Sequence record: OL362274.1
Direction: 5' to 3' (one strand)
DNA: 47,726 nucleotides
From: Escherichia phage HC6
Positions 7,424 to 47,026 of the stretch are shown here, piece by piece. Position 1 is the stretch's first letter. Every line of letters starts with the position of its first letter. The notes under the pieces were generated by a model. That model saw only the letters and a list, made by a program, of their open reading frames with translations. It searched no databases and was not told where the DNA came from. Made by a program: the position numbers and the translations under genes.

Positions 7424-7864
7424 ATGAAACTATCGCAACGCGGCAAAGAACTAATCAAGTCGTTCGAGGGTTTTGAGCTTCGTGCTTATCCCGACCCAGC
7501 GACTGGTGGCGCCCCGTGGACCGCTGGTTATGGTCACACTGGTGCAGACGTTAAGCCCGGAATGACAGTGACGCAGGAGATGGCTAATGCATGGCTGGAT
7601 GGTGACGTGAAGAGGTTTGAGGATGGCGTATCGGCGCTGCTAACCGCACCAACCACTCAGTCGCAATTCGATGCAATGGTGTCGTTGGCATACAACATTG
7701 GTCTTGGCAACTTCCGCAAATCAACCCTGCTACGCAAGCATAACGAGAAATGCTACACCTGTGCTGCCAGCCAATTCCTCGTGTGGAATCGCGCCGCTGG
7801 TAAGGTTATGAATGGCCTGACACGGAGGCGTAACGCGGAACGCGCTATGTATATGGGGCAATGA
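7424..7864 (+). CDS. endolysin (GH24 lysozyme)
   Basis: 146 aa; AGGAGG RBS; LRAYPDP, GYGHTG and LAYNIG motifs resemble lambda R / P22 gp19-type lysozymes. Confidence 0.85.
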   Translation: MKLSQRGKELIKSFEGFELRAYPDPATGGAPWTAGYGHTGADVKPGMTVTQEMANAWLDGDVKRFEDGVSALLTAPTTQSQFDAMVSLAYNIGLGNFRKSTLLRKHNEKCYTCAASQFLVWNRAAGKVMNGLTRRRNAERAMYMGQ

Positions 7865-8100
7865 AAAAGCTAAGCAACTGGCTGCTCGGCGCGTGGATTT
7901 CGTTCTGCTCACTGTTGCAGCTGTGGCCTGATGCAATGATGCATGTGTGGGTAATGATGCCTGATGACCTGAAAGCGGCGCTACCGCCAATCGTGGTTAA
8001 AGGTGTAAGCTACTCAATTATGCTTGTCGGCATCCTCGGCAAAATGCACGGCATGAGGAAGGAAAACCGGAGGCTGCGCGATGATGTCGATTCTCGCTAA
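7861..8100 (+). CDS. putative holin
   Basis: 79 aa with two hydrophobic segments and basic C-terminus; ATGA overlap with endolysin stop; function inferred from position. Confidence 0.45.
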   Translation: MKKLSNWLLGAWISFCSLLQLWPDAMMHVWVMMPDDLKAALPPIVVKGVSYSIMLVGILGKMHGMRKENRRLRDDVDSR

Positions 8101-8572
8101 ATACTGGCGACCACTAGTAATTATTATAATTGTTGCTGCTGGCGCGTTGTGGGTAGCAAATAAAGTATCCAGCTATGGCGAGCAGCAATATGCCGCTGGA
8201 TATGCAAAAGCAATCGCAGACCAGAAGGCCGCAGACAAACAAGAGGAGCAACGACGCAATGCAGAACTGCAAAAGATTCAGGCCGACGCACAGCAAAGGA
8301 TTGATGCTGCGCGTAATGATGCTGTTAATGCTGCTGCTAAGTCTGGCAGGTTGCAGCAACAACTCACCAGTATCCGCAAGCAGCTCGTCGGATATTCCAC
8401 CGCTGAGTCCATTGGCAACCCAGCCGCAGATACCGGAGTTTTGCTTGCCGATGTGCTCAGCAAATCTATCGAAAGAAATCGACAACTGGCAGATTATGCT
8501 GACAGGGCAAGAGAAGCGGGATTAGCGTGTGAGGCGCAGTATAATTCGCTGCGCAATAAAAAAGCCCCGTGA
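8081..8572 (+). CDS. i-spanin (Rz-like)
   Basis: 163 aa; N-terminal TM (WRPLVIIIIVAAGALWVA), then Q/A/R-rich coiled-coil-like region; directly after lysin and holin. Confidence 0.7.
   Translation: MMSILAKYWRPLVIIIIVAAGALWVANKVSSYGEQQYAAGYAKAIADQKAADKQEEQRRNAELQKIQADAQQRIDAARNDAVNAAAKSGRLQQQLTSIRKQLVGYSTAESIGNPAADTGVLLADVLSKSIERNRQLADYADRAREAGLACEAQYNSLRNKKAP
8316..8525 (+). CDS. o-spanin (Rz1-like lipoprotein) embedded in i-spanin gene
   Basis: +1 frame inside 8081..8572; MMLLMLLLSLAG-C lipobox; Pro-rich mature part; 69 aa. Confidence 0.65.
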   Translation: MMLLMLLLSLAGCSNNSPVSASSSSDIPPLSPLATQPQIPEFCLPMCSANLSKEIDNWQIMLTGQEKRD

Positions 8573-19474: not shown

Positions 19475-20104
19475 TTAATCCTCATCACCAGAATTAGCAA
19501 TATCGTAAAACTGACCGTAGGTTATCTGCTTAAAGTTATCAGGTATCGTTACCTGTCCGTGACCTTCATCTTTTGTATTTGGCACAGCAAAAATCAAACA
19601 ATCATCCTTTTTCGGGTGTTTGCCTCCATAAGTAGAAAGCATTGCAAAACCAAATCCGCGACCAGATTGCTCACCAATGCCGGTACGTGCGATGCCATAA
19701 TGGTTAACAATGTAGTCCTTCCATTCTGGCAATAACTTTAATTTCTCGTTTGCCTCGCGCATCACTGCGTCCAGCTTTTTGTTGTATTCACGACCATCCT
19801 TTGTGTTTCCTTTCCCACGAACAATAACCACGCGCTGACCTTCCCAAAAATCTTCACGTTTTATTGTTACAGGGCATGGAAATTCAAATTTATTGCTCCA
19901 CGCAAAACTCTCAAGCAGGCCACCGCCAACAGCGCCCCAACTGCGCGTTGTGGTAAATGCGACAGCTCCAACCTTTTTCATTGCGTCACCGAGAATTTCA
20001 TTGCGGCGATTCTTGATGTCATCGTATGCGTCGATTAGTTTCTTAACATCATCACCTTCAACCATGTAATAATCATAATGTTTTGCGTTACTACTCATCT
20101 TCAT
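19475..20104 (-). CDS. hypothetical protein
   Basis: about 209 aa; first gene of minus-strand operon; start ATG 20104 or 20098 after GAGGTG; no motif recognised. Confidence 0.55.
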   Translation of the reverse strand: MKMSSNAKHYDYYMVEGDDVKKLIDAYDDIKNRRNEILGDAMKKVGAVAFTTTRSWGAVGGGLLESFAWSNKFEFPCPVTIKREDFWEGQRVVIVRGKGNTKDGREYNKKLDAVMREANEKLKLLPEWKDYIVNHYGIARTGIGEQSGRGFGFAMLSTYGGKHPKKDDCLIFAVPNTKDEGHGQVTIPDNFKQITYGQFYDIANSGDED

Positions 20105-20125
20105 CACCTCTAACATTTATTGTTG

Positions 20126-20185
20126 TTTCTACGTCACTAACTATAAACGCCACATCAATCTACGTCAACAGGAATATGCTAAAAT
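20126..20185. promoter_or_regulatory. divergent promoter region with paired TCTACGTCA motifs
   Basis: TTTCTACGTCAC and TCAATCTACGTCAACA followed by TAAAAT -10-like hexamer; between divergent genes 20104 and 20216. Confidence 0.45.
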
Positions 20186-20215
20186 CATGCTAATCAAACA
20201 ACAGGAGATTTAAAC

Positions 20216-20335
20216 ATGGGTTCAACCAACTCACCATCTCGTTCGCGCGCTACTGGCAACACAAAAACTGGCGGCAAAACTGGCGTGGTGAAGCCAAACG
20301 GCTCTACCCGTTCACCATCGCGCGGTAAAAAATAA
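20216..20335 (+). CDS. small basic peptide
   Basis: 39 aa (MGSTNSPSRSRATGNTKTGGKTGVVKPNGSTRSPSRGKK); AGGAG RBS; stop overlaps next ATG. Confidence 0.35.
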   Translation: MGSTNSPSRSRATGNTKTGGKTGVVKPNGSTRSPSRGKK

Positions 20336-20775
20336 TGTTCGGCGCAGATGTTGCCATCATGATCATGTATGTGCTTGGATTTGCCTGCACGGGCATGGTT
20401 GCGTTTCTGGTGTTCATTCCGGCAATGGTGATGTCTGTGTATCTTGGATGGGTGCTTGTTGATTCATTTCCCGCCGAATATCTGTATTACCTTGCGCAGT
20501 GTATGGTCTGGTTGTTTCCGGCTATTGCGCTGCGTAAAAGTACAAAGATGGCGCTCTGCGTGCTGACGATGAGCCTTTACGAATGGCTGGTTGCGATAGA
20601 GTCATTCGTATGGGAATTTATCACGCCTGTAGAAACGCCGCTTCATGCGCAGTACGCATTTATTATTATCGGCATCCATCTGTTCATCCTTTCCATCACT
20701 TTTAAATGGGGCGGCGAAATTGGACATTATTCTTGGCGTGGTTGCCATCGTTTTTTCGCTGATTCAAATCTATAA
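20335..20775 (+). CDS. polytopic membrane protein
   Basis: 146 aa with several hydrophobic segments. Confidence 0.55.
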   Translation: MFGADVAIMIMYVLGFACTGMVAFLVFIPAMVMSVYLGWVLVDSFPAEYLYYLAQCMVWLFPAIALRKSTKMALCVLTMSLYEWLVAIESFVWEFITPVETPLHAQYAFIIIGIHLFILSITFKWGGEIGHYSWRGCHRFFADSNL

Positions 20776-20807
20776 GTGCTGGAAACATATTATCAGCGAG
20801 ACTCGCA

Positions 20808-21092
20808 ATGAACGAAACACTAAGACAGGCCGCAGAGCAAGTTATAAGCGGGACGACGGGGCAGGTGATTGACAAGGCTGGATATGCCTCCATTGGTACT
20901 GGTATTGGACTGAAAGTTGCAGAGCAAACGCCTGTCACGCAGTCTTATTTTGAGGCTATGATTCCACACAGTCTGACAGAGTGGGCGGCAGTAGCGTCAA
21001 TCCTCGGCGCCCTGTCTCTGGTAATAAAGAACCTCTTTGAAATGTGGTGGAAGGTACGGGAGTCAAAAAAAAATGGCAGCACCAACACCTGA
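20808..21092 (+). CDS. hypothetical protein with C-terminal TM segment
   Basis: 94 aa; hydrophobic WAAVASILGALSLVI; ends in A9 tract. Confidence 0.5.
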   Translation: MNETLRQAAEQVISGTTGQVIDKAGYASIGTGIGLKVAEQTPVTQSYFEAMIPHSLTEWAAVASILGALSLVIKNLFEMWWKVRESKKNGSTNT

Positions 21093-21465
21093 AGAATTAG
21101 TAAGCCAGATGGCATCACGTGGAATGACTATCACCACAACGGATGCGTCTGGTATTCTGTGTCTTGTGGCATCAATCAGTGAATGCCTTGAGCTGAACTA
21201 CCCCAATGATGAATGCCGGCAAAATGCGATCATGCTGTGGGCTTCCATCCTGATTAGCGCAAATACCGCAGGGCGCTACGTCACCAGTCAGAGCGCACCA
21301 TCTGGCGCATCGCAATCATTCGCTTATGGCAGCAAGCCGTGGGTGGCGCTATACAATCAGATGAAACTACTGGATACAGCAGGATGCACTGGCGATTTAG
21401 TGGAAGACCCGGACGGCGGCGGCAAGCCGTGGTTTGCGGTTGTGCGTGGGAGTAAATGCAAATGA
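21073..21465 (+). CDS. putative head-tail connector / adaptor protein
   Basis: 130 aa from ATG 21073; function by position only. Confidence 0.4.
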   Translation: MAAPTPEELVSQMASRGMTITTTDASGILCLVASISECLELNYPNDECRQNAIMLWASILISANTAGRYVTSQSAPSGASQSFAYGSKPWVALYNQMKLLDTAGCTGDLVEDPDGGGKPWFAVVRGSKCK

Positions 21466-21803
21466 CTTCACTGGCTAACTGGAGCTACACGCAACCATGC
21501 ACCATCTGGCACAAAAGAGGCACTGACAAGTACGGCAAGCCAACTTTTGACGCGCCAGTGAGCATCATGTGCGATTATGGCTTTAACGATGATGTATCGA
21601 CCGATGCGAAAGGCAATGAGATTGTGCAGAAAAATACATTCTGGACAGAATACACTGACGCTAATGTTGGTGATTACATCATGATTGGCACGGTGACAGA
21701 AGCTGACCCGCTGGCGGCTGGCGCAAATCAGATTCTGAATGTGATTAACTATGGCTCAACTTTCAACAGGTCAGAGCCACCTGACTTTGCACTGGTGACA
21801 TAA
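21456..21803 (+). CDS. putative head-tail joining protein
   Basis: 115 aa; positional. Confidence 0.4.
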   Translation: MQMTSLANWSYTQPCTIWHKRGTDKYGKPTFDAPVSIMCDYGFNDDVSTDAKGNEIVQKNTFWTEYTDANVGDYIMIGTVTEADPLAAGANQILNVINYGSTFNRSEPPDFALVT

Positions 21804-22201
21804 TGCCAGCGAAATTAAGAGGCGTCCGACAGGCCGTAGAGAGAACATCGCAGATTGTGGATGAGATAATCGCCACGAAAGCTGTGCGTGCAATTAAGTC
21901 AGCGACATACATCATCCGCACCGAATCAGCCACGCTAACGCCAATTGATACATCAACGCTAATTAACAGTCAGTTTGATACCGTGGAAGTTAGCGGAACG
22001 CGAATCACTGGCAAGGTTGGCTACTCTGCAAAATATGCACTGTACGTCCACAATGCCAGCGGTAAACTTGCAGGGAAACCGCGCAGCAACGGCAACGGCA
22101 CGTATTGGTCGCCGGGTGGTGAACCACAATTCCTGACCAAAGCAGCGCAACGCACAAAAGACCTTGTTGATAGCGTGATTAAGAAGGAGATGACACTCTA
22201 A
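21803..22201 (+). CDS. tail completion protein (HK97 gp10-like)
   Basis: 132 aa; TLTPIDTSTL resembles the P(V/I)DTG-L motif of HK97 gp10-family proteins. Confidence 0.5.
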   Translation: MPAKLRGVRQAVERTSQIVDEIIATKAVRAIKSATYIIRTESATLTPIDTSTLINSQFDTVEVSGTRITGKVGYSAKYALYVHNASGKLAGKPRSNGNGTYWSPGGEPQFLTKAAQRTKDLVDSVIKKEMTL

Positions 22202-22575
22202 TGAATATGCTTGAACTGGTTGATGCATATCTTCAGGATGCAGGATTGTACGATGGCTGGACTTCGCAGCTGCAGTTCTGGAATGACACCGGAGATGGAA
22301 GTGAGCAATTTATTGTTCTGCAATCCAACGGTGGCACTCAGGTTATGGATGGCCTCGGCGGTGACTTCTATTTTTCGCTGTATGTTGTTGGCAAACAAGG
22401 CCAATACAATGTTGCTGATGTTGATTCGAAGGCCAATGAGATTATCGAATACATCAAAACACACCCGATTGATTCATGCGTTAACTACATCCAGTTGCAA
22501 GCGCCACTTGGCAGGGCAATGCTGACGGAAGAAAAAAGACCAGTGCATGAACTGCTATTGCGTGTTGTGAAATAA
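22201..22575 (+). CDS. putative tail terminator protein
   Basis: 124 aa; positional, before major tail gene. Confidence 0.4.
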   Translation: MNMLELVDAYLQDAGLYDGWTSQLQFWNDTGDGSEQFIVLQSNGGTQVMDGLGGDFYFSLYVVGKQGQYNVADVDSKANEIIEYIKTHPIDSCVNYIQLQAPLGRAMLTEEKRPVHELLLRVVK

Positions 22576-22577
22576 AT

Positions 22578-22602
22578 AAAGCCGCATGAAGCGGCTTTTA
22601 AT
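22578..22602 (+). terminator. rho-independent terminator
   Basis: AAGCCGC-atga-AGCGGCTT then TTAATTT. Confidence 0.55.
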
Positions 22603-22603
22603 T

Positions 22604-22680
22604 TGGTGGACACGGACGGATTTGAACCTTCAATCAGCCGATTATTAGTCGGTTGCTTTAACCAATTAAGCTACGCGTCC
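22604..22680 (-). tRNA. tRNA, anticodon AAT (Ile-like) by hand fold
   Basis: 77 nt cloverleaf on minus strand: 7-bp acceptor stem, GCTT/AAGC D-stem, GGTTCAAATCC T-arm, encoded CCA; anticodon and isotype need tRNAscan-SE. Confidence 0.6.
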
Positions 22681-22682
22681 AT

Positions 22683-23180
22683 AAGTGCTGGTTTAAGCAT
22701 TGCCAGCGTGCTTTCTTAACATCCAGCCCCGTAACCCATACGTACCCCTACATATGATTGCGATAATGCTGGATATTAAGTGTTGTGGTGGCCGGTGCTG
22801 ATCTCCGGCATAAGGCGCTTATTCGGCGGCGTCGAGCTTGCTTATTCGCTTGAGCCATCCTCGTGAGTCAGCCACGTCCCACTGCGCATCAGCCTGCGCA
22901 TTCACCACAACGGAAAGAGCACTGATGCGCTCACTTGGGACTCCTTAGCCATAACCCACGGGCTTCTGGTACACCAATGCTCTTACCTGTTGTGTTCCCT
23001 GACTTATTAATCACACCTCAGGGACGCAGTGCGCCGAATTTGTTTACAAGGAATCGGAAGACCTTGCTGACTTACAGGCTATTACGCCGCCATCAGAACA
23101 ACATCATCGTTTGCATTTATCTTTGTGGTCAGTTTCTAAAAAGTCCGCAAAGTCGCTCACGAAAACTATCTGAAATACAA
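22683..23180. other. ORF-free structured region, candidate ncRNA or cis element
   Basis: about 500 bp with no convincing ORF; long imperfect hairpin 22876..22941 and hairpin TCCCTGA...TCAGGGA near 22993..23021. Confidence 0.3.
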
Positions 23181-23222
23181 TCTACACCACAAAATAATCG
23201 CTGTCAACACCTGTGATATAAT
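23181..23222 (+). promoter_or_regulatory. promoter with extended -10 (TGaTATAAT) and upstream AATCTACACC / TGTCAACAC elements
   Basis: nearly same architecture as 24554..24603; 37 nt upstream of major tail gene. Confidence 0.45.
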
Positions 23223-23258
23223 CACCACGTTAGCAGCTAACACAATTCGGAGATCGAA

Positions 23259-23975
23259 ATGGCTATTTGTGCAAATGATAAAGGCGTTCTGGTCGGTCGC
23301 ATGACCCGACTGTTCCTTGCTGAAGGGTGCGGCGACGCAGTTCCGGATGCAGGCGACTGGAAGTATTTAGGCTCAACCACCAGTAAAGGCGTTGACTACT
23401 CGCCGCAGACCACTACGTCGGAAGCGGATACCGCTGGCGGCTTTGTTTCTACTCTCGTTACCAGCTCTGATATGACCATCAGTGCAGAGGTAGAAATCCG
23501 CAAGAATGACCCGAGCGATGAGTTTGGTTTTCATCGTCTGGTTGAGATTTACGCCACCGAACTGAAAGCGCGTCGTCAGCCTTCTTTGTGGGTACGTGAG
23601 GTAACTGGTGCAACTATCGTTACCGCGTACTGCAACATCACCAGCATCAGTTATGAAGGCGGCACCAACGACATCGTAACTGGCGGCCTTGAGTTCAAGG
23701 TTTACGATTCTGACAGCGTTACCGTCGAAAGCCTTGAGCCACTGAAGTTCACCACCGACCTGCAATCAACTGGCAGCACTGGCAGCCCGTTAACTGTTGC
23801 TGTTGAAGGTGGCGTCGCTCCTTACACCTACGTGTGGCGCAAAGATGGCGCGGTTGTTGGCGGCGAATCTGGCGCATCACTGGCAAGCCCAACTGCTGGC
23901 GTGTATACCGTTACGGTAACTGATTCATCTACTGACCCGGAAATTATTATCAGCACGGCGTGCACCGTATCCTGA
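23259..23975 (+). CDS. major tail tube protein with C-terminal Ig-like domain
   Basis: 238 aa; own promoter and terminator; Ser/Thr/Gly-rich C-terminal domain like lambda gpV Ig-like extension. Confidence 0.7.
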   Translation: MAICANDKGVLVGRMTRLFLAEGCGDAVPDAGDWKYLGSTTSKGVDYSPQTTTSEADTAGGFVSTLVTSSDMTISAEVEIRKNDPSDEFGFHRLVEIYATELKARRQPSLWVREVTGATIVTAYCNITSISYEGGTNDIVTGGLEFKVYDSDSVTVESLEPLKFTTDLQSTGSTGSPLTVAVEGGVAPYTYVWRKDGAVVGGESGASLASPTAGVYTVTVTDSSTDPEIIISTACTVS

Positions 23976-23980
23976 TAAAG

Positions 23981-24010
23981 AAAAAGCCCCGAAAGGGGCT
24001 TTGTTTTATT
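23981..24010. terminator. bidirectional rho-independent terminator
   Basis: AAAAAGCCCC-gaaa-GGGGCTTTGTTTTATT. Confidence 0.6.
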
Positions 24011-24188
24011 CTAGTGGCGGATCTGGTAACGGCATCCAGTGGGTCACGCACTCAACAAGCACGTTATCGCAGTAGAAATCCCAATATCTGTCGTAAGCCC
24101 CAGACCAAATCTCTCCATACTCATTGAATACCAGAATGGCTTTAAATTGCTCCGGCATCCGCTCACTACACTTAATCCACTGGCTCAT
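24006..24188 (-). CDS. DUF551-like protein
   Basis: 60 aa; W.KCSERMPE ... VTHWMPLPDPP matches DUF551 signature as recalled. Confidence 0.55.
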   Translation of the reverse strand: MSQWIKCSERMPEQFKAILVFNEYGEIWSGAYDRYWDFYCDNVLVECVTHWMPLPDPPLE

Positions 24189-24623: not shown

Positions 24624-25370
24624 ATGCAAAACATGAGCAATCGCACGCCACTAACAGAAATCGGGGAGATGCGCATCTCGCTTTCTGACAGGAGTTTTTT
24701 CTTTAAGCCATCATTCCGTGCCATGAATGAAATTGGCACGCCAAAAGAAATCGTCGAGGTATACGCTAAGCTCAATGGCATTGATTATATTGCGCCGTTG
24801 CAGCACGTCGAATACCTGCCATTTGGCGCGCAGATGCAGGTTATGAAGACCATCAGCAAACCTGTGTATGGTCGCCATGTACTGAGCGCAGCCTATATCG
24901 TCATGCAATCATGCTGTGAAGATGATATTTCTGTGCTGATTGGTGGATGGAAGCCAACACCGCGCGGTGTGCGATACGTGCCGGGAGTAATGCCAATTGG
25001 CGGCACTGGACATTTGCCAGGTGGAACAGGTGGAATTATTGAGATTGCCCGCTCATTAATGGAGCACGGCATTATTGGCAAATCACCACTCAAAGTGCCT
25101 GAGCGTCTGGAAGAGCAGGGTAAGAAAACCACAAATGAGTTTCATGCGTCGCAATACATCATCTCAGCGCGCACGCATTTCGACATGACGCGTGATGAGG
25201 CCGAAAACCTGTCCATGACAGAGTTTCAGATGATGATTAAAAATAAATATCCAGAGCCGAAAGGGTTAACGAAAGAAGAGCGCGCGGCAGAGTACGATCA
25301 GGCTAAAGCAGACCGTGAGCGCATGAAGGCACTGGCTGAACGCAAAGCGAAAAAAGCGAGGAATACATAA
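24624..25370 (+). CDS. putative tail assembly chaperone
   Basis: about 246 aa directly upstream of tape measure; alternative start ATG 24633; single ORF, no frameshift site evident. Confidence 0.4.
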   Translation: MQNMSNRTPLTEIGEMRISLSDRSFFFKPSFRAMNEIGTPKEIVEVYAKLNGIDYIAPLQHVEYLPFGAQMQVMKTISKPVYGRHVLSAAYIVMQSCCEDDISVLIGGWKPTPRGVRYVPGVMPIGGTGHLPGGTGGIIEIARSLMEHGIIGKSPLKVPERLEEQGKKTTNEFHASQYIISARTHFDMTRDEAENLSMTEFQMMIKNKYPEPKGLTKEERAAEYDQAKADRERMKALAERKAKKARNT

Positions 25371-46445: not shown

Positions 46446-46599
46446 ACAGAAAGTCTGGCAACTCGCAAAGCAGCACGAATTAGACGATTTCATCGAGAAG
46501 GTTGCAAAGACATTCCCTGACGCGCTTGAAGTCGTTCATGTGCAGACGCGAAATGAAAATGCATGGTGCTACACAAAAAATCATACAAATGGTAGATGA
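46429..46599 (+). CDS. hypothetical small protein
   Basis: 56 aa; in frame with track ORF 46366. Confidence 0.4.
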   Translation, partial: LMQTTKQKVWQLAKQHELDDFIEKVAKTFPDALEVVHVQTRNENAWCYTKNHTNGR

Positions 46600-47026
46600 A
46601 ATGAAGCTAACAAAAAAACAACGCGAAGAGCTACGCATGAAGTTCGGTGGTCGCTGTGCTTATTGTGGGTGTGAGCTACCCGAGAAAGGTTGGCATGCAG
46701 ACCATGTTGAACCAGTGCTACGTAAATCTGAGCAGTGCATGAAGGCAGCGGCGAAAGGGATTTTCAAGCTGAAGGCAACCGGTGAGCTATATCGACCAGA
46801 AGCCGAGCGACTGGAAAACCTTTACCCTGCGTGCGCCCCCTGCAATCTGATGAAAACTTCCTATTCCCTGGAAATGTTCAGGAAGCAGGTATCTCTTCAG
46901 GTTGCTCGTGGGCGCAAAAGCAGCATGAATTTCCGCACTGCAGAGCGTTTCGGTCTTATCGCCGTGGTGGAGAGGCCAGTTGTTTTCTGGTTTGAGAAAT
47001 ACCAGGAAGAGAACGAAAAAAAATAA
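46589..47026 (+). CDS. HNH endonuclease
   Basis: CAYCG...HADHVEP...NLYPACAPCN HNH motif; about 145 aa from ATG 46589. Confidence 0.8.
   Translation: MVDEMKLTKKQREELRMKFGGRCAYCGCELPEKGWHADHVEPVLRKSEQCMKAAAKGIFKLKATGELYRPEAERLENLYPACAPCNLMKTSYSLEMFRKQVSLQVARGRKSSMNFRTAERFGLIAVVERPVVFWFEKYQEENEKK

Follow-up and report, generated by a model that had tools for sequence, protein, structure and literature searches.

Run-based slippage operates in T. thermophilus dnaX, in IS elements and in Shigella mxiE/spa13 (PMC1088944; PMC5009743), and runs of nine A or T are slippery in bacteria (PMC5009743). In E. coli, RNA polymerase reporters showed no slippage below A8, and deletions could not be detected on those poly(A) runs that were tested (PMC6260861), and ribosome sliding in an E. 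coli system was slight at A9-A10 and robust only at A11 (PMC4363877). For mapW, ORFs that are uninterrupted in some strains point to slippage during replication (PMC1088944). Here we describe a run of this type in Escherichia phage HC6 (OL362274.1), where nine A's lie at the junction of a membrane-protein gene and the gene of a probable head-tail adaptor. The sequence analysed, one strand of 47,726 nt given 5′ to 3′, is called the window below, and coordinates refer to it unless stated otherwise; the features are collected in Table 1.

The first-pass annotation of the window, made from the letters, had placed an A9 homopolymer at this junction, and reading the sequence confirms that the nine A's are there, reaching into the 20-nt overlap of the two genes. 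It had also put the downstream ATG at 21073 with a frame open from 21037, in agreement with the ORF list, where the frame extends from a TTG start-type codon at 21037 to 21465. Locally the sequence reads ...GGGAGTC AAAAAAAAA TGGCAGC..., the final A of the run being the A of the downstream ATG. The upstream frame crosses the tract as TCA AAA AAA AAT GGC ... TGA (S86 K87 K88 N89 ... T94), and its TGA stop (21090-21092) comes 17 nt beyond the downstream ATG. The downstream gene lies in the +1 frame relative to the upstream gene, so that fusion of the two proteins would require one A fewer or two more in the mRNA, or a +1 ribosomal shift. With its 5′ bound set by the TAA that closes the downstream frame, the interval in which a shift would yield a fusion is 21025-21072. 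The predicted product consists of upstream residues 1-88 followed by the whole 130-aa downstream protein, that is, 218 aa with the junction ...ESKK-MAAPT..., the junction peptide being ...VRESKKMAAPTPEELVSQ... Both overlapping CDS were also annotated by the depositors of Escherichia phage 6947 (ON637251.1), in which the record coordinate equals the window coordinate minus 23.

Table 1. Features of the junction and of the lysis cassette in the window.
Feature	Position	Strand	Basis or remarks
Endolysin	7424-7864		Lysis cassette
Holin, phrog_13249	7861-8100		E=2.7e-52
Rz with embedded Rz1	8081-8572		Rz1 in another frame, lipobox LSLAGC
94-aa single-pass membrane protein, phrog_13738	20808..21092	+	ORF list; PHROG 'membrane protein' match, E=1.7e-60; annotated CDS in relatives
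Single hydrophobic (transmembrane) segment, residues 59-77	20982..21038	+	Kyte-Doolittle 19-residue peak of 1.70 at residue 59
TAA stop in the +1 frame	21022..21024	+	Closes the downstream frame on the 5′ side; read from the sequence, agrees with the ORF list
GGGAG Shine-Dalgarno (SD) motif of the downstream gene	21058..21062	+	Inside the upstream gene, 10 nt before the ATG
A9 homopolymer	21065..21073	+	Third base of Ser86 TCA, Lys87 AAA, Lys88 AAA, first two bases of Asn89 AAT; includes the A of the downstream ATG
130-aa DUF7370 protein, phrog_786, probable head-tail adaptor	21073..21465	+	PF24085, E=5e-36
Overlap of the two genes	21073..21092	+	20 nt; NGSTNT* (frame 0) over downstream MAAPTPE

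The upstream protein, which ends in the C-terminal tail ...WWKVRESKKNGSTNT, had been described in the first-pass annotation as membrane-anchored, and this description holds, both from its own hydrophobic segment and from the helix that TMHMM places at residues 59-81 of the homologue in phage E1 (VIP0023). The charge is -2 on the N-terminal side of the hydrophobic segment and +3 on its C-terminal side. The positive-inside rule would thus place the C-terminal tail in the cytoplasm, along with anything joined to it. Searches of PDB sequences with both proteins, and of NCBIfam, gave no matches, and Pfam returned a single, sub-threshold match for the upstream protein (P21 holin S, PF04971, E=0.074). 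The label 'holin' is carried by one record only. We rejected it, since the PF04971 match is sub-threshold and a canonical endolysin-holin-Rz/Rz1 cassette sits at 7424-8572. In relatives, the tail changes G to D exactly where downstream residue 2 changes from A to T. The NGSTNT end of the tail appears dispensable, since the upstream ORF of one relative, phage vB_SenS_SB28, terminates in ...HKKK*. Among the genome-reduced mutants of phage seszw (PMC9825161), whose genomes shrink to about 36 kb, all records listed keep the 94-aa gene and the adaptor gene, and at least 80% of the query is covered in 137 of the 139 matching records. The 94-aa gene may thus matter in itself; its retention in the seszw mutants could equally reflect the overlap with an essential gene. 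The neighbouring gene of a 146-aa four-helix membrane 'lipoprotein' (20335-20775) is disrupted in seszw_2t1, and a 100-bp deletion in it can be present in the mutant records (L294, L295).

That ATG 21073 is the true start of the downstream gene follows from the alignments with Pfam DUF7370 and with phrog_786, which begin at residue 2-4, and from the N-terminal MAAPT..EL shared by homologues. Furthermore, GGGAG or AGGAGG, and the ATG, are kept in every relative, and the site is an annotated ribosome_binding_site in phage Skate. With a workable SD spacing, a conserved internal start and an upstream stop nearby, the two genes have the attributes of a translationally coupled overlapping pair, and the adaptor is probably expressed normally from its own initiation, which would be coupled to translation of the upstream gene. 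The first-pass annotation had called the product a putative head-tail protein. Gene order, other annotators' labels ('head to tail adaptor') and the secondary-structure pattern speak for this: the gene heads a run comprising a head-tail connector-like gene, an HK97 gp10-like neck gene and a tail terminator gene (PF23842), followed by the major tail protein gene. The fold itself gave no such backing. In the AF2 model (pLDDT 80), a beta-hairpin accompanies a helical bundle, and a Foldseek search of the PDB and BFVD with this model returned no match at E<=0.001, so that the head-tail adaptor label stays probable, not proven.

Some other features of this part of the genome can be mentioned. Just 3′ of the adaptor gene there is a hot spot for insertions in relatives (window 21461-21484 and 22198-22200; L002, L013, L020, L035, L045 and L046). 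The inserts 3′ of the adaptor gene measure 146 nt with a 50-aa ORF in Skate and seszw and about 600 nt in L013, L020 and L035, and L045 and L046 carry a 659-nt HNH endonuclease insertion 3′ of the neck gene. On the minus strand, a tRNA gene (22604-22680) lies between the tail-terminator and major tail genes of the late operon; ARAGORN assigns it to tRNA-Ile with anticodon AAT, ON637251.1 likewise has tRNA-Ile, and the Bas80 homologue is annotated as tRNA-Met. Immediately 5′ of the tape-measure gene there is a single 248-aa DUF6246 ORF (24624-25370), at a position that usually holds a tail assembly chaperone pair with a -1 frameshift.

An A9 run is no more frequent in the window than chance would have it: there is one run of at least nine A's against 1.3 expected, at least one such run occurs in 62 of 100 shuffled sequences, and matches to at least eight A's number three against 4.95 expected. 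Among the 87 gene starts, ATG 21073 is the only one with A at all eight positions from -8 to -1. Gene overlaps are common in this genome (1, 4, 8, 11, 14, 20 and 47 nt), and the one between the holin and Rz genes also measures 20 nt. The second-longest homopolymer of the genome is an A8 at 47016-47023, in the final codons of a 145-aa HNH-like gene (46589-47026), just before its stop.

The phage belongs to a Skatevirus-like group of siphophages. The 2.3 kb around the tract are about 100% identical to phages 6947 and HC8A. In the Skate / E1 / seszw / IME207 group, over 100 siphophages of Salmonella, Escherichia and Shigella match this stretch at 90-99% identity. The window corresponds to ON637251.1 (47,726 bp) rotated by 23 nt, except for six substitutions (3090, 5499, 12152, 17183, 21096 and 26710); the one at 21096, 23 nt past the A-run, is A in the window and G in ON637251.1, and HC8A agrees with the window. 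Junctions were compiled from the window and 65 relatives (66 junctions) and from 10 more contigs encoding the identical 94-aa protein, giving a census of 76; the sources were 37 IMG/VR contigs, GenBank isolates, 13 metagenome contigs, 8 fused-ORF loci (see below) and those 10 further contigs. A scan of metagenome and genome contigs with a degenerate DNA pattern, which was unspecific, yielded at least 13 true relatives, all metagenomic and none fused, and the same kind of scan of species-representative genomes gave no true relative among the matches listed.

The first-pass annotation had made conservation of the tract length in relatives a point to be checked, and on this point the census goes against a conserved tract. 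In most relatives the run is broken to 3-6 A's: the longest run is 3-5 in 48 of the 76 junctions and 6 in one, as compared with 8 in 13 and 9 in six, the remaining eight being the fused loci. The six A9 junctions are those of the window, ZCEC08, ST1UNAM, Bas80 and two Logan contigs, and an exact match to the 79-nt junction is also present in HC8A. The commonest junction in relatives is TCA AAG AGA AAT, and most runs are interrupted by AAG, AGA, CGA or TCG codons, that is, by synonymous or Lys/Arg changes. In the set of 66 junctions, positions 21065 (A, G or C), 21068 (G in 30 vs A in 27), 21070 (A in 36 vs G in 21) and 21071 (A in 47 vs G in 10) vary freely, and positions 21066, 21072 and 21073 are invariant. 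At the protein level, [KR][KR]N is kept in every relative, as SKKN, SKRN, ARRN or HKKN. Two different left-flank backgrounds carry A9 (L309 and the window), so that A9 arose more than once through AAG to AAA changes. Conservation thus falls on the basic juxtamembrane residues and on the translation-initiation region, and the perfect homopolymer is a drifting minority state. One E1-like relative, vB_SenS_SB28 (MK947460.1, L023), has one extra A in an A5 run (around 21068), and its upstream ORF ends in an ATGA overlap. It is the sole +1 allele and the frame relation of its two genes differs. A second 1-nt insertion in this genome, around 20598 inside the 146-aa membrane-protein gene, means that the two are either real frameshifts or a sign of lower sequence quality.

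Fused alleles came to light when a protein collection was queried with the hypothetical 218-aa fusion and a match was obtained at 100% coverage. The matching cluster comprises four different fused proteins, P0001, P0070 and P0072 (218 aa) and P0074 (222 aa), all with ESKK-MAAPT at the junction. The contigs carrying the fused ORF are near genome length and come from SRR13227773 / GCA_029080495.1; from ERR4024228 and ERR4024256; from ERR11042773, ERR11042684 and ERZ28587718; and from SRR22877500. At the DNA level, the fused loci (L043-L050) read TC+A8+TGG or TCG+A7+TGG, one A below the A9 and TCG+A8 forms, respectively. When the tract is masked, each fused locus is closest to an unfused relative whose run has one A more, at identities of 99.8% (the window, to fused L043), 98.5% (ZCEC08), 94.9% and 94.9%, which implies three or four independent deletions. 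Fused alleles are confined to long-run backgrounds: the four fused lineages all have long runs, as do 11 unfused junctions, whereas the 47 junctions with short runs include no fusion (Fisher p=0.0024). When 49 relatives were compared over 20216-22575, 1-nt indels occurred at the A-run and otherwise only as two singletons, the insertion in L023 and a deletion in L050. The latter (Logan SRR22877500) is a second 1-nt deletion, at 21451, which turns the end ...RGSKCK* into ...RGVSANDFAG* and accounts for the 222 aa. In a 20-kb comparison of a fused contig with the window, only divergence-type indels were seen.

The fused alleles are rare, about nine contigs against 190 blocks in which the exact unfused 94-aa protein is indexed, and none of the 101 matching GenBank phage records has a fused junction. 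Two GenBank records, AB4P2 and INT55, were considered as fusions and rejected, the single feature across their junction reflecting a later ATG chosen for the adaptor. A literature search on the sequencing-run accessions of the fused alleles found nothing. One of the fused contigs (GCA_029080495.1, JAEGHV010000026.1; L300) is a mosaic whose identity to the window reaches 98% over 20095-24026 only and is about 92% in the rest; two ORFs, of 112 and 143 aa, are called in its methylase region (7424-8141 of that contig). Several such phage-length contigs derive from Salmonella or E. coli isolate assemblies. The fused alleles are probably real.

The first-pass annotation had proposed that transcriptional slippage or a +1 shift on the tract fuses the two proteins. 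The geometry and the 218-aa product of this proposal stand, the latter as a DNA-level allele in assemblies, but the unconserved tract speaks against a programmed use. Were recoding programmed, a defined fraction of a functional membrane-anchored adaptor fusion would be made from the A9 gene pair, and this we regard as highly improbable. A run of about eight or nine A or T at an ORF overlap is what such a mechanism calls for, the fused ORF is evidently viable enough to have been assembled from nature, and A9 is common to 6947, HC8A, ZCEC08, ST1UNAM and Bas80, at identities down to 93.8%. Moreover, AAA_AAA_AAU would let a P-site AAA re-pair in the +1 frame, and GGGAG lies 3 nt 5′ of the first AAA, which we take to be the spacing of the prfB +1 site. 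However, a slow A-site codon is absent, its place being taken by AAU and by AAA, the commoner Lys codon in the genome (526 vs 410 AAG), and the AAG AGA of most relatives cannot re-pair, so that the shift site is not conserved. The adaptor has its own conserved SD and ATG, and no trans-frame product is needed to express it. A run broken in most relatives is an explicit ground for rejection in Baranov et al. (2005; PMC1088944), and by that rule the A-run is not a functionally used slippage site. Folding of 21000-21150 revealed no RNA structure near the tract (z=+0.39 vs shuffles), and no N-terminal membrane extension was seen in distant DUF7370 homologues down to 29% identity, all matches outside the fused cluster being 119-154 aa. 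The record of phage E1 holds no virion mass-spectrometry note for these two genes. The published E. coli data predict little deletion or sliding at A9, which, together with the unconserved tract and the lack of structure, leaves programmed slippage unsupported. A small amount of adventitious fusion would be expected all the same, as runs of nine A or T are known to be slippery in bacteria (PMC5009743).

That the fused alleles are sequencing or assembly errors, and that the A-run is inert, a coding and spacer stretch of naturally constant length, strikes us as unlikely. Each of the four events is a deletion, and each lies in the longest homopolymer of a region where no other run exceeds six and none of comparable length can serve as an internal control; L050 and L023 each carry a second single-base indel, and the curated isolate genomes, that is, the 101 GenBank records, have no fused allele. 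Against this, the assemblies of one sample by NCBI and Logan are concordant on the fused allele, as are those by Logan and ENA, and within a study several runs yielded the allele. Elsewhere, contigs of Logan and ENA give A9 and A8 correctly, and all other genes on the fused loci are intact save the methylase gene of JAEGHV010000026.1, called as two ORFs. Two of the fused lineages, moreover, have only A7, a length that short-read consensus is expected to call correctly. If the variation is natural, the locus might be a contingency locus, in which the run is kept because replication slippage reversibly switches between separate and fused states that are each useful in different conditions. Several observations point that way: very close genomes differ by a frame-changing length polymorphism (A9 vs A8 at 99.8% and 98.5%; TCG+A8 vs TCG+A7), the three to four independent -1 events affect long runs only and have produced fused derivatives in both A9 and TCG+A8 backgrounds, and the uninterrupted mapW ORFs offer an analogy. 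Yet long runs are the minority state, gained and lost by ordinary synonymous changes, which argues against maintenance; the fused alleles are rare and are found in none of the plaque-purified isolates; and tolerance of a nearly neutral indel accounts for the same data. A contingency locus appears quite improbable. The more specific proposal, in which A8/A9 is a heritable, reversible switch, the fusion tethers the adaptor to the inner membrane and thereby alters membrane-protein function or virion assembly, and both states are kept, is one that we hold to be very doubtful.

We consider it likely, instead, that the A9 is where two ordinary constraints overlap, a homopolymer made by drift that is prone to slippage and whose -1 alleles are tolerated. 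One constraint would be on the upstream protein, whose transmembrane helix is followed by a conserved pair of basic residues (Lys/Arg-Lys/Arg), and the other on the purine-rich spacer between GGGAG and the adaptor ATG. The comparison of relatives indicates that synonymous drift (TCG to TCA, AAG to AAA) in one sub-lineage perfected the homopolymer. A run of 8-9 A's would then slip, and repeated loss of one A at the DNA level would give the in-frame 218-aa fusion of membrane protein and adaptor; unless they are artefacts, such -1 alleles have been found in at least four divergent assembly lineages. Both amino-acid sequences are kept in a -1 allele, and the adaptor's SD and ATG stay within the fused ORF, with a 9-nt spacer. 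Because the ribosome-binding site and ATG of the adaptor persist there, free adaptor is presumably still made, and the fusion is probably tolerated and nearly neutral. This near-neutrality would explain why this frameshift survives in nature where most do not. In the A9 phage itself, a small amount of the fusion would be expected, arising adventitiously when RNA polymerase or the ribosome slips.

The locus calls for some caution, as a long homopolymer in a gene overlap resembles a recoding signal and it is the census of relatives that shows codon drift. It also bears on annotation: relatives with one A less will be given a 218-aa 'membrane-DUF7370' chimera, which is not to be read as a new domain architecture. 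If the fused alleles are real, the phage tolerates having a membrane protein permanently joined to a probable neck protein, in what amounts to a small natural experiment on the robustness of overlapping, internally initiated genes. Moreover, the A8, A9 and AAG-AAG alleles would provide an easy handle on RNA polymerase and replication slippage in a lytic phage.

Compared with the systems in which a run is used, the phage tract is like those of T. thermophilus dnaX, IS orfA-orfB (A9 in both cases) and Shigella mxiE/spa13 in tract type, length and two-frame overlap. Those systems, however, conserve both the run and the arrangement of ORFs and depend on the trans-frame product, whereas most relatives of the phage have an interrupted run, and the downstream gene is read from a start of its own. 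The likeness to prfB-type +1 frameshifting lies in the SD-like GGGAG located 3 nt 5′ of a re-pairable AAA; here, though, the A site holds neither a stop nor a rare codon, GGGAG serves the next gene as its ribosome-binding site, and most relatives lack the slippery codons. Homopolymer contingency loci of bacterial pathogens share with the phage locus a one-base length difference between near-identical genomes that alters proteins, but here the carrier of the tract is a lytic phage. From translationally coupled overlapping phage genes, with SD and ATG inside the 3′ end of the upstream gene, nothing essential sets the pair apart, except that its A-rich spacer is accidentally perfect, with eight A's out of eight, a case unique among the gene starts of the window.

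The adventitious A or T runs, pseudo-pseudogenes and ORF pairs of the mapW type (PMC1088944) are likewise alike in having an A8-A9 in an ORF overlap where a one-base change fuses the frames. As in the phages, such pairs are split in some genomes and uninterrupted in others, and an unconserved run is classed there as having 'no apparent functional role'. They differ in that the phage ORFs are complete, unrelated and independently started genes, not halves of one protein. Since both phage genes are complete and independently translated, the split state is the normal one and the fusion the oddity. The A-run thus joins the many slippage-prone runs to which no function is assigned, the added curiosity being the recurrent, natural fused alleles.
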